Below, one piece after another: positions 61,022-63,389 of a stretch of DNA of 64,000 nt. A program made the translations under genes and the position numbers. The notes below the pieces were generated by a model that saw only the letters and a program-made list of their open reading frames with translations, had not been told where the DNA came from and did no database searches. The stretch comes from Actinomycetes bacterium (GTDB lineage Bacteria > Actinomycetota > Acidimicrobiia > Acidimicrobiales > RAAP-2): contig JAJYQJ010000111.1 of NCBI GenBank assembly GCA_021794655.1, positions 16,462 to 80,461 on the forward strand. Reading direction: 5' to 3'. The stretch's first letter is position 1, and each line of letters begins with the position of its first letter.

Positions 61022-62547
61022 ACGGCCACGAAGACACTCCGGCCGCCGTCTCCGTCGACACGTTCAGCGAACGCGTTGTTGCGCGAGTGGCTCGTGGCGC
61101 TAGATTCTGCGGGCTGTTCGCGTCGGCGGACTCGGGAGGCAACCGCCTAACGGCGGTGCTCGCCGAAGGAAACTCGCTTCGCAGCGAGGTAACGGTTGTC
61201 CCTGACACGACGGAGGGCTTTCCCACTCTCAGCACCGAGCTGCCGTCGGCGTCTTGGTACGAACGAGAGATCCACGACCTCTTCGGCCTCAAACCCCTGG
61301 ACAACGCCTCTCTCGACCCACTCGTCCTGCCACTCAAAGCCGGCTCCAAATACCCATGCCCGGGGAGTGGCGAGCCGGCCAGTCCAATCGAGATCGACCC
61401 GACTCCGTCACGCACTCGCCTTCTCGGCGAGGGAGTCTTCACGATTCCCTACGGTCCCGTGCGATCTGGTGTTTTCGAGTCCGTAGAGTACGTGGTTGAA
61501 ACCCCCGGCGAGGATATCCCCTACGTGGTTCCGCGAGTGTTCTACAAGCACCGCGGGATAGAAGCGCGATTCGACGGAACGAGCGTCGACGACGGAGTCC
61601 TGGTGGCCGAACGCTACGAAGGGGTGGCCTCGGTCGCCCACGCGATCGCGTACTGCACAGCGATAGAGACGATAGCCGGCGTCGAAGTCAAAGAGGCGGC
61701 GAACTTCGTCCGGATCGTCCACGCCGAGTTAGAGCGCATCGTAAACCACTTAGAGTCAGTCGTTCGCAACACCGAAGCTGCCGGACAGGCCGTTGCTTAC
61801 GCGCGACTAACGTTGCACAAGGAGCGGCTACAGCGCCTGAGAGCTCGGCTCTGTGGCAGCCGCTTCGGTCGCTCGGTAGTGGTGCCCGGTGGGGTCACAG
61901 GACCACCTCGCCTGGACTCGAACACTTTGTTGGCCGGCCTCGACGGGATCGAAAAAGATATCCGTTCCGATCTCTCCCTCCTCATGTCGACGCCGTCGTT
62001 CATCGATCGACTAAGAGCAACAGGGGTGATACCGCCCGATCTGGCCCGCCAACACGGTGCGGTCGGACCGGTTGGACGGGGCTCGGGTCAGGTTGAAGAC
62101 GTTCGATTCACTCGTCCCTACTCCGGCTACCAACTTCTCGGACATCAGCTCATCGAGCCTCGCATCGATGGTGACGCTCTCGCCCGCCAGCGAGTCCGCT
62201 TGGACGAGATAGCCGGTGCTTTCCATCTGGTGCGCCAAGCGATCGACCGGCTAAGCGAGCTAGCAGTTGACGACGCCGACTGGCGTGTTCCAGTCGAGCT
62301 CGCCAATGGCGAGTCAATCAGTGGCAAGTCAATCAGTGGCGAGGCGATCGGCTGGGCAGAGGCCCCTCAAGGTGAGCTCCTTTACCTGGTGACCGTGGAC
62401 GACGGTGTGTTGAAACGGGTGAAACCCCGTTCTGCCTCCTTTCACAACCTGGCCCTTTTCAGCGCCGCCTTCCCAAAAGAGGTGCTTACAGACTTCGCAT
62501 TCATAGAAGCCAGCTTCGGAGTCTCGATTGCCGGGGTGGCCGGCTAA
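61018..62547 (+). CDS. NuoC+NuoD / HycE-like large subunit lacking all four NiFe cysteines
   Basis: SWYEREIHDLFGL (NuoC part), IPYGPVRSG...GEDI, YKHRGIE. The Ni motifs are replaced by ERYEGVASVAH and a C-terminal ASFGVSIAGVAG. Confidence 0.85.
   Translation: MNGHEDTPAAVSVDTFSERVVARVARGARFCGLFASADSGGNRLTAVLAEGNSLRSEVTVVPDTTEGFPTLSTELPSASWYEREIHDLFGLKPLDNASLDPLVLPLKAGSKYPCPGSGEPASPIEIDPTPSRTRLLGEGVFTIPYGPVRSGVFESVEYVVETPGEDIPYVVPRVFYKHRGIEARFDGTSVDDGVLVAERYEGVASVAHAIAYCTAIETIAGVEVKEAANFVRIVHAELERIVNHLESVVRNTEAAGQAVAYARLTLHKERLQRLRARLCGSRFGRSVVVPGGVTGPPRLDSNTLLAGLDGIEKDIRSDLSLLMSTPSFIDRLRATGVIPPDLARQHGAVGPVGRGSGQVEDVRFTRPYSGYQLLGHQLIEPRIDGDALARQRVRLDEIAGAFHLVRQAIDRLSELAVDDADWRVPVELANGESISGKSISGEAIGWAEAPQGELLYLVTVDDGVLKRVKPRSASFHNLALFSAAFPKEVLTDFAFIEASFGVSIAGVAG
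62311..62340 (+). repeat. 15-nt tandem duplication (SISGK/SISGE) inside the large-subunit-like gene
   Basis: GAGTCAATCAGTGGC / AAGTCAATCAGTGGC. Confidence 0.9.
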
Positions 62548-63389
62548 TGCCTTGGATACCAAGAGGGTTGCACGACGGTGTAGTCACCACTCGATATCCT
62601 CGTCGAGCGGACGGATACGGCGAAGGATTCCACGCTGCAGTCGACGTAGAACCGGGAGCTGCAGTTGACGATCGCGCATATGCGGCCGTGACGGCGTGTC
62701 CGACGGACTCTATTTCAATTGCAGGTTCAACAACAGGCGGCCGGCTCCACCTCGATAGAGGTCGCTGCATCCTTTGTAGACGTTGCGTCGACATATGTCC
62801 TCGGGCGTTCCGGTTCACCTCGGACTTCGAAGTATCAACGCAGCAGCGTAACCACTTGATCGTGCCCGACTTGGAGGAGGACGACGCGACCCTAGCTCGC
62901 ACTCGTGACGAGTTGGCGCGGCGCGTGAGGATACTGCGACGCTCGCTTCACGTCCGTCACGTCGACGCTGGTTCCGACGGCGCCGACGAATGGGAGGTGG
63001 CCGCTTTGATGAACCCGATTTACGACGTGCAGCGCCTCGGAATCTACTTTACGGCCAGCCCGCGCCATGCTGATCTACTGTTGGTCACAGGGGTAGGGTC
63101 ACTCGGGATGATCGACTCGCTCGCAGAGACCTTCGAGGTCATGCCTGAGCCAAAGGTCGTTATCGCCGCCGGTGTCGACGCAATCAGTGGTGGCATCCTC
63201 CGCGATGGATACGCCTCGAGCGCCGGGGTCACCGACTTGGTCCCAGTCGACGTACTCGTGCCTGGCAACCCGGCGAGCCCGTTTGGCTTGCTCCATGGGA
63301 TCTTGCTGGCGGTCGGCCTTCTTAAAGAGTCTCGTGGTCACGCAGTTCGCCCGTCGACGAACTCTAAAGCATCGGTTGAACCAAAGTGA
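62547..63389 (+). CDS. fused HycF-like (single 4Fe-4S motif) plus HycG/NuoB-like small subunit; the NuoB-like part is completely Cys-free
   Basis: GVVTTRYP, ACPTDSI, CILCRRCVDICP; then HVRHVDAGSDGADEWEV, FTASPRHADLLLVTG, MPEPKVVIAAGVDAISGG, PVDVLVPGNPASP. Confidence 0.8.
   Translation: MPWIPRGLHDGVVTTRYPRRADGYGEGFHAAVDVEPGAAVDDRAYAAVTACPTDSISIAGSTTGGRLHLDRGRCILCRRCVDICPRAFRFTSDFEVSTQQRNHLIVPDLEEDDATLARTRDELARRVRILRRSLHVRHVDAGSDGADEWEVAALMNPIYDVQRLGIYFTASPRHADLLLVTGVGSLGMIDSLAETFEVMPEPKVVIAAGVDAISGGILRDGYASSAGVTDLVPVDVLVPGNPASPFGLLHGILLAVGLLKESRGHAVRPSTNSKASVEPK

Follow-up and report, generated by a model that had tools for sequence, protein, structure and literature searches.

Acidic residues in place of proximal-cluster cysteines in a NuoB/HycG-like subunit of an Ehr-type operon preceded by a fluoride riboswitch

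The locus and its six genes

The subject of this analysis is a gene on a 64,000-nucleotide stretch of DNA from an Actinomycetes bacterium (Acidimicrobiales, RAAP-2; assembly GCA_021794655.1, contig JAJYQJ010000111.1, positions 16,462 to 80,461 of the forward strand). We call this whole stretch the window, and positions refer to its first letter unless another locus is named. The open reading frame (ORF) at 62547..63389 on the + strand encodes 280 aa, in which a HycF/NuoI-like ferredoxin (approximately residues 30–105) is fused to a HycG/NuoB-like small subunit (approximately residues 130–262), as assigned with Pfam, NCBIfam, HMMER, and MAFFT. Judged by homology, the product supplies both the ferredoxin and the small subunit to an Ehr-type complex of six subunits: its operon combines a group-4-like large subunit lacking the NiFe ligands with NuoH-like and antiporter-like subunits, which is how the class is defined (PMC6349859, PMC10284858). 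At the positions where a proximal [4Fe-4S] cluster would be ligated, this small subunit has acidic residues and Asn, and a fluoride riboswitch precedes the operon.

All six genes lie on the + strand. The first encodes a NuoH/HycD-like membrane anchor (57892..58863, starting at GTG 57892 or ATG 57895; Pfam NADHdh, E 2.4e-34; Escherichia coli HycD, 7z0s_D, E 2e-35), and the second a HyfE-like small membrane subunit (58860..59528; NCBIfam "hydrogenase 4 membrane subunit," E 9e-27, under the curated cut-off). These are followed by a HyfF/NuoM/MrpD-like antiporter subunit (59531..61021; Pfam Proton_antipo_M, E 7e-51, aligning to MbhH and NuoM), a NuoC+NuoD/HycE-like large subunit without NiFe ligands (61018..62547; Pfam Complex1_49kDa and Complex1_30kDa), the fusion gene, and the 5' part of a HyfB/NuoL/MrpA-like antiporter subunit (63386..64000), which is cut by the window end. 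The last of these is 677 aa in full and lies at 10840–12873 of locus L001 (Pfam Proton_antipo_M), with a Usp gene next on the contig. Pfam, NCBIfam, and Protein Data Bank (PDB) matches for all subunits, together with the MbhJ/HycG fold of the small subunit, give the homologous subunit set and fold of group 4.

An earlier note on this DNA, made from the letters alone, had described the neighbouring genes as intact and translationally coupled, which agrees with their overlaps of 1–4 nt or spacing of 2 nt. The gene order H-E-F-L-S-B is kept in essentially all orthologous loci. The membrane subunits are better conserved than the peripheral ones, with mean identities to the window of 71, 68, 64, and 57% for the four membrane subunits and 55–57% for the large and small subunits. 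The 71% belongs to the NuoH-like subunit (68 loci), which has 24 near-invariant charged residues, and the 68% to the HyfE-like subunit. In the HyfF-like subunit the Glu of transmembrane helix (TM) 5, the Lys of TM7, and the Glu of TM12 (E132, K220, and E394) are invariant in 70/70 loci, and in the HyfB-like subunit E140 and K219 are invariant in 73/73 and E402/E407 are invariant or nearly so.

Ligand columns of the small subunit

The NuoB/HycG scaffold named in the earlier note was confirmed. Pfam Oxidored_q6 (the NuoB/HycG domain) matches residues 147–253 with E 4.5e-16 and a score of 59.2 against a threshold of 27, single-cluster Fer4-type models match residues ~48–102, and HycF/HyfH/NuoI-type NCBIfam models match residues 9–129. 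The NCBIfam scores all fall under the curated family cut-offs, the best being 91.9 bits against the NuoB cut-off of 116. Among solved structures, the top matches of the small subunit are E. coli HycG (7z0s_G, E 2.8e-27) and Pyrococcus furiosus MbhJ (6cfw_J, E 2.6e-26). In an AlphaFold2 model (predicted local distance difference test, pLDDT, 68.9) the C-terminal NuoB part superposes on MbhJ with a TM-score of 0.84 and a root-mean-square deviation of 2.6 Å.

As the note had counted, the protein has no Cys after residue 85; its five Cys all precede residue 86. The HMMER register places the query segment VDAGSDGADEWEV opposite VDCGGCNGCEIEI of HycG and VNSGSCNGCDIEI of MbhJ for ligands 1 and 2, AAGVDAISGG opposite SYGACGNSGG for ligand 3, and VPGNPASP opposite IPGCPPTP for ligand 4. 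The four proximal-cluster ligand columns of HycG and MbhJ are thus occupied by D144 (codon 62976–62978), D147 (62985–62987), D211 (63177–63179), and N241 (63267–63269), all on the + strand. When HycG and MbhJ were included in a MAFFT alignment to control the register, the columns came out identical, and the note's match of Asp, Asp, Asp, and Asn to the four ligands is right. With zero Cys in its small-subunit domain, the protein has neither the Cys for cluster N2 of complex-I NuoB nor the four proximal-cluster Cys of group 4, the positions reading D/D/D/N in the window and D/[ED]/D/S in the family. The fold match and the homology to ligand positions suggest that the four side chains would converge on one site.

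Conservation and selection

The fusion protein is identical to a protein of the Acidimicrobiales metagenome-assembled genome GCA_054637255.1 and has thousands of homologs, the best 120 of which are fusion proteins with 58–69% identity. Over these 120, ligand 1 is D in every case; ligand 2 is E in 66, D in 53, and V in one; ligand 3 is D in 111 and E in nine; and ligand 4 is S in 115, A in three, and T and N in one each. The family signature is D-[ED]-D-S, set in an invariant S-D-G-x-[ED]-E-W-E stretch, and with the invariant E148, W149, and E150 there are five acidic residues in an 11-residue stretch. The D/D/D/N pattern first proposed holds in part: ligands 1–3 are acidic family-wide, but Asn241 is peculiar to this genome (1/120), the family residue being Ser (115/120). 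A few representative sequences, P0136 (630 aa), P0189 (525 aa), and P0217 (588 aa), exceed the usual 260–295 aa, with the small-subunit match covering part of their length; these could be further fusions or gene-calling artefacts.

A motif scan with one genome per species found the family motif in at least 570 species genomes. The best 80 of these are all from Actinomycetota, and include the cultured carriers Streptantibioticus parmotrematis, Leifsonia aquatica, and Mycobacterium sp. pUA109. Median pairwise omega (dN/dS) is 0.36 for the fusion gene, 0.39 for the large subunit, and 0.25–0.32 for two membrane subunits; these values are upper bounds only, since synonymous sites are near saturation and GC-biased.

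One might read such a gene as a decaying relic, that is, as the random erosion of Cys from a disused hydrogenase operon, given that all canonical catalytic ligands are gone and that the NCBIfam scores lie below every curated cut-off. We attach practically no weight to this reading. The ORFs are intact and translationally coupled with omega below 1, as in their neighbours; conservation of the replacement residues extends over at least 570 species; the functional residues of the membrane subunits are invariant; and the upstream riboswitch is conserved. A change from Cys to Asp takes two nucleotide changes and recurs in separate lineages, and therefore points to selection, as the earlier note had held. 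Pseudogenisation was rejected on this conservation, and no frequent frameshifts or stops were seen among orthologs.

The surviving medial cluster

In the ferredoxin part, the HMMER alignment puts A39, A44, and A47 at Cys 1–3 of motif 1 of HycF. With these gone, the domain is not a two-cluster ferredoxin of the HycF/EchF/MbhN type, and the Cys left are the "CP" Cys of motif 1, C51, and those of motif 2. In MbsN, the medial cluster is held by the fourth Cys of motif 1 and Cys 1–3 of motif 2 (C71, C96, C99, and C102; PMC8165549). The counterparts in the window protein, C51 (codon 62697–62699), C74 (62766–62768), C77 (62775–62777), and C80 (62784–62786), all on the + strand, are invariant in 120/120 homologs, and C84 is found in 31/120. 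By this correspondence the retained set is that of a predicted medial [4Fe-4S] cluster adjoining the emptied proximal site, and C84 is a leftover ligand of the lost distal cluster; its variability is to be expected because the medial cluster alone survives. The earlier note had seen here one complete CxxCxxCxxxCP motif. That motif is present in the window, but the conserved set is C51 with C74, C77, and C80. Its estimate that at most one of the three usual clusters can form stands, since only the medial ligand set is retained.

The large subunit and the missing electron wire

The large subunit lacks the RxCGxC and DPCxxC ligands of group 4. Its segment AERYEGVASVAH lies opposite AERMCGICSFSH of MbhL, and the four NiFe ligand positions read E201, A204, S503, and G506. 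Across 77–79 loci, these columns are E in 79/79, A in 66 or S in nine of 79, S in 71/77, and G in 77/77, and the His of the GPxHP motif is replaced by an invariant Arg. The former NiFe pocket has been remodelled around the invariant R149, E154, and E201 (window 61462, 61477, and 61618). In L084, a sister sequence that keeps all four proximal-cluster Cys (hereafter CCCC), the position of E201 is Ala, and E201 therefore seems to have arisen together with the loss of the proximal cluster. A true quinone site was considered and rejected; the equivalents of Nqo4 Tyr87 and His38 are Gly and Phe.

In the subunit sequences, then, the NiFe, distal, and proximal (N2-type) ligands are absent and the medial [4Fe-4S] set is the only one present. 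No electron wire therefore leads to the former active site, and the complex as predicted from these sequences cannot make H2. Genes for FdhF/HycB, NuoEFG, CODH, and Hyp proteins were looked for within ±10 kb on the source contig, and none was found.

The complex might still be a redox enzyme, in which the medial [4Fe-4S] cluster takes electrons from ferredoxin to a substrate or cofactor close to the large subunit's remodelled site, either directly or via a non-Cys-ligated metal at the D/E/D/S position. In its favour are the medial-cluster Cys, invariant in the 120 homologs as well as in a second Cys-less group (described below) and its separate ferredoxins, the invariance of E201, R149, and E154, and the CCCC sisters, which keep the three-cluster wire without NiFe, so that some Ehr chemistry is probably redox. 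We nevertheless hold this to be improbable. Without the proximal cluster, the medial cluster and the active site are two tunnelling steps apart, a gap that in complex I geometry is well over 14 Å; no partner dehydrogenase is encoded within ±10 kb; and the stepwise loss of cofactors along the lineage argues that redox function became dispensable. A [4Fe-4S] cluster ligated by Asp, Glu, or Ser alone was considered too and rejected on chemical grounds; we know of no described cluster of this kind with oxygen ligands only.

A fluoride riboswitch upstream of the operon

CrcB, DUF190, Usp, MutS-domain, and phosphatase genes recur as neighbours of these operons, and for that reason an RNA search was made. 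An Rfam scan of the whole window returned nothing at the gathering threshold. A permissive search of 601 nt located a fluoride riboswitch aptamer (crcB motif, a variant of RF01734 with an extra hairpin) at 57799..57872 on the + strand, scoring 20.4 bits against the gathering score of 34 (E 0.003) and ending 20 nt before the first operon gene. Its parts are P1 (57808–57811 with 57820–57823), the insert hairpin (57825–57829 with 57832–57836), P3 (57841–57844 with 57850–57853), and a pseudoknot between the loop at 57814–57819 and the tail at 57858–57863. The low score is explained by the extra hairpin after P1. In Acidimicrobiales copies this hairpin varies in length, covaries, and sits between P1 and the AACCGCC segment (columns 20–42 of alignment A2). 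Standard Rfam annotation under-detects this variant.

Of 65 orthologous loci, 59 have the full element in recognisable form ahead of the first operon gene, and a strict pattern for the 3' signature matches 25–45 nt upstream of that gene in 27. Above-threshold Rfam scores were obtained at the equivalent position in L037, L050, L056 (S. parmotrematis), and L067 (Mycobacterium sp. pUA109), at 42.5–45.9 bits, and also in the CCCC sister L088 (56.9 bits) and in L086, an operon of the second Cys-less group (39 bits). Covariation was assessed on 39 aptamers, using the canonical architecture plus the extra hairpin, with 500 shuffles and slid partners as controls. Of the aptamer cells, 93.2% are paired, against 76.9% in shuffles (0/500 as high) and no more than 55.8% with slid partners, and 13/19 pairs have changed on both sides. 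P1, with its 8-nt loop, is 100% paired with 3/4 pairs covarying (CG/GC/UA swaps), and P3 and the pseudoknot are paired in 94% each. On this sequence evidence a fluoride riboswitch precedes the operon. A regular-expression search for a second one in the window and a 20-kb extension found none.

An expression platform at 57858..57890 (+) sets the tail GGCCUCU against the Shine–Dalgarno sequence GGAGG at 57884–57888. In the minimum-free-energy fold of the window, GGCCUCU pairs with GGAGGUC (−12.1 kcal/mol, z −1.4); in orthologs the same pairing reaches z −3.6 to −4.0, and 0/200 shuffles fold as well. The 3' tail would alternate between the P1-loop pseudoknot in the ligand-bound state and pairing with the Shine–Dalgarno sequence, making this a putative translational ON switch by which fluoride turns translation on.

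The surroundings of these operons hold further genes of interest. Downstream of the operon, L001 12886–18426 carries Usp, a dynamin-like GTPase, and two MutS-domain-V proteins, and in the Dormibacterota operon L087 a dynamin-like GTPase precedes the operon too. Usp and MutS are gene types associated with fluoride riboswitches. In L088, CrcB and DUF190 come directly next in the operon and are co-operonic with it. "Fluoride islands" with three or four fluoride riboswitches within a few kb occur at L067 1490–4297, L088 131–2316, and L056 13487–14977; their riboswitches control Usp plus His_Phos_1, MutS-domain, DUF190, and other genes, and one adjoins a NUDIX-containing stretch.

Every readable riboswitch-linked operon, that is, the 77–79 loci plus L088 and L087, is missing the NiFe Cys; the large subunit of L086 was left out of this reading because its gene call is truncated before the first motif. 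Those complexes therefore cannot be hydrogenases, and it is probable that, in this family at least, the fluoride-induced "formate hydrogenlyases" (FHL) of the literature are not hydrogenases. The tie between the two features is not universal: the Ehr-type operons L085 and L089 have a rotated order (B-H-E-F-L-S) and no fluoride riboswitch at the gathering threshold, and their small subunits are one DSSD with both ferredoxin motifs and one CCCC. Cluster loss and Ehr status are therefore not always tied to fluoride control.

Other Cys-less lineages and the order of losses

Among 150 representatives of 50%-identity clusters, 70 are CCCC and most others are Cys-less with Asp at ligand 1. A neighbour-joining tree, crude and built with the ligand columns left out, recovers one large D-[ED]-D-S clade and several separate Cys-less lineages nested among CCCC sequences. 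The patterns met are DEDS, DDDS, DVDD, DIDD, DAAD, DSSD, and DTDN, and common to all of them are Asp at ligand 1 and 2–3 acidic residues among the four positions. The second large group, from Solirubrobacteraceae, Dormibacterota, and Chloroflexota, reads D (120/120)-[V/A/I/E]-[D/A/S]-D; its ferredoxin is sometimes a separate gene of 109 aa, and the medial-cluster Cys are invariant there too. A query with a stand-alone Cys-less small subunit, meant to reach Mycobacterium tuberculosis Rv0082, led instead to sequences from Dormibacterota, Chloroflexota, and Solirubrobacteraceae.

The nearest CCCC relatives, L084 and L088, have the same operon layout and keep the cluster ligands, with the NiFe Cys already gone; the order of loss was therefore likely NiFe, then distal, then proximal. 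In this stepwise scheme, which we consider likely, a group-4 hydrogenase gave rise to an Ehr complex whose Fe-S wire was still complete; that complex then lost first the distal and next the proximal cluster.

The second group also bears on the suggestion of the earlier note that the concerted replacement of four ligands created a hard-cation site. Such a site would have D144, D147, D211, and N/S241 binding a metal (Mg2+, Ca2+, Mn2+, or Fe2+) instead of a cluster, and binding of the ion, or a linked protonation, would gate or couple translocation and might even sense metal-fluoride species. Within the window clade, the three carboxylates and the hydroxyl or amide show strict conservation, they correspond by homology to four ligands that meet at one site in HycG and MbhJ, the invariant E148, W149, and E150 adjoin with five acidic residues in 11, and fluoride biology is linked to Mg2+/Ca2+ chemistry (PMC11139923). 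The conserved acidic residues thus speak for the suggestion, but ligand 4 is Ser in the family and varies among S, D, N, and A, and members of the second group are hydrophobic at ligand 2 and have A/S at ligand 3 in about one third of cases. There is therefore no fixed four-ligand metal site common to both groups. His is absent as well, and metal binding and side-chain geometry are read from sequence and homology. We regard the cation site as unlikely overall, though going by the conserved residues a metal site within the window's own clade is possible.

A proposed charge surrogate under fluoride control

The reading to which we incline, by a modest degree, is that the operon encodes a fluoride-induced, redox-independent ion translocator in which carboxylates replace an anionic cluster. 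The three carboxylates and Ser/Asn in the proximal pocket would most likely be a structural and electrostatic stand-in for that cluster. A [4Fe-4S] cluster with four thiolates has a net charge of 2− or 3−, which the 2–3 acidic residues would match, so that the surfaces meeting the large subunit and the membrane anchor would stay intact. The surrogate would also preserve the charged axis that has been described between the proximal cluster and the membrane arm, into which it extends (PMC8165549). That arm, made up of a NuoH-like, a HyfE-like, and two antiporter-like subunits, is probably a redox-independent cation/proton translocator that would support pH and ion homeostasis in fluoride stress, alongside fluoride export of the CrcB type. 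A precedent is deactive mitochondrial complex I, a redox-independent Na+/H+ antiporter that exchanges ions without redox drive (PMC3464577).

Several points weigh against this translocator. The roles in transport, metal binding, and expression of all its members are read from their sequences, and the convergence of the four side chains is read from homology and the fold match. The invariant medial cluster has no explained role in it and could be structural, a sensor, or an electron entry point. Purifying selection on the peripheral subunits and the invariant E201, R149, and E154 suggest more than a passive cap, and the fluoride-controlled CCCC sister L088 keeps three ligand sets, so the ancestral fluoride-linked function may be redox. 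A Na+/H+ antiporter of the classical kind brings protons in, and it is not obvious how this would counter the acidification that fluoride causes. The riboswitch of the window itself lies under the Rfam threshold, and its Shine–Dalgarno-sequestering hairpin is weak (z −1.4).

A more specific proposal, and quite an improbable one, is that the acidic pocket and the E201/R149/E154 site bind Mg2+/Ca2+-fluoride or HF, making the complex a fluoride-specific machine coupled to the proton-motive force. It would then be a fluoride-gated proton/cation translocator or a device for active HF/F− handling, not a generic antiporter. If true, this would be the first case in the complex I superfamily of a "Q-module" that, in place of electrons, senses or processes an inorganic anion.

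Comparison with known systems

Ehr complexes share the group-4-like subunit set (NuoH-like, HyfE-like, antiporter-like, large, and small) and a large subunit without the NiFe CxxC (PMC6349859, PMC10284858, PMC7894505, PMC6728331). That literature defines the class by the loss of NiFe and works from the assumption that ion translocation is coupled to a redox reaction in the cytoplasm. The window operon differs in also lacking the proximal and distal clusters, in having conserved carboxylates instead, and in its fluoride control; the Fe-S wire that the assumption implies is absent from it, whereas the CCCC sisters L084 and L088 keep the wire ligands. In the accessible papers on Ehr and complex-I evolution we found no mention of proximal-cluster loss, Coppi 2005 and Marreiros 2013 being outside this coverage, and a 2021 review holds that every member has the proximal cluster, the most divergent form of it being the site of MBS with its three Cys (PMC8165549).

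Best matches to HycG (E 2.8e-27), HycF, and HycD (E 2e-35) of E. coli formate hydrogenlyase (HycBCDEFG-FdhF, PDB 7Z0S)/Hyf explain why such operons are usually annotated "formate hydrogenlyase," but the window operon lacks its NiFe, proximal, and distal clusters and has no FdhF, HycB, or hyp genes nearby. P. furiosus MBH and MBS (PDB 6CFW, 6U8Y) resemble it in fold (MbhJ, TM-score 0.84) and modular architecture. MBS has lost NiFe and has a modified proximal-cluster ligation with three Cys (PMC8165549). MBH and MBS have three clusters and are driven by ferredoxin, whereas the window family has 0/4 proximal ligands. With Mrp (CPA3) antiporters the antiporter-like subunits share the TM5 Glu, TM7 Lys, and TM12 Glu/Lys, here E132, K220, and E394 in the HyfF-like and E140, K219, and E402/E407 in the HyfB-like subunit; Mrp has no NuoH/NuoB/NuoD-like module, and the window operon has such a module instead of MrpB/C/E/F/G.

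With the fluoride riboswitch regulon (crcB motif RNA, RF01734) the locus shares P1, P3, and the pseudoknot with covariation, and neighbours encoding CrcB, Usp, MutS-domain proteins, and phosphatases. "Formate hydrogen lyase" is among the commonest genes associated with this riboswitch, Na+/H+ antiporters are the second commonest class, and the literature takes the "FHL" genes as true formate hydrogenlyases that mark a metabolic shift to fermentation (PMC11139923, PMC8004769, PMC8752731). In the accessible papers we found no mention of the loss of NiFe or Fe-S ligands in these genes; Baker 2012 is outside this coverage. Both kinds of system were known before, the Ehr complexes and the fluoride-regulon "FHL" genes, and this operon joins the two.

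"Formate hydrogen lyase" has stood in fluoride-riboswitch gene lists since 2012, and in most of the readable linked operons the electron wire is missing too. An odd association between fluoride and "FHL" thereby becomes a testable hypothesis of ion or pH homeostasis, for which cultured carriers exist. The characterised superfamily members (complex I, NDH, MBH, MBS, and FHL) all keep a proximal [4Fe-4S] cluster atop the coupling site. A clade with carboxylates for that cluster in at least 570 species, with the membrane arm and the peripheral stub under selection, is a natural experiment on an electron-less Q-module, and it bears on the importance of charge itself at the N2 position.

Further observations around the locus

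The Rv0081-87 locus of M. tuberculosis has a published assignment to the Ehr class. Its related "hyc" operon (Rv0082-87) is often still labelled a putative hydrogenase, and the same check of its ligands is deserved there.

Two copies of the H-E-F-L-S-B operon per contig stretch, in tandem or divergent, are found in L015, L033, L059, and L071. Upstream of the operon in the window (53034–56332) lie genes for an ArsR-type HTH_20 protein, a hemerythrin, and DUF2249 and DUF59/FeS_assembly_P proteins, and among them, at 54263–55783 on the − strand, one for a membrane protein of ~440–506 aa that matches no Pfam family. Rv0081 of M. tuberculosis, the regulator of the hyc/Ehr locus there, is also of the ArsR type.

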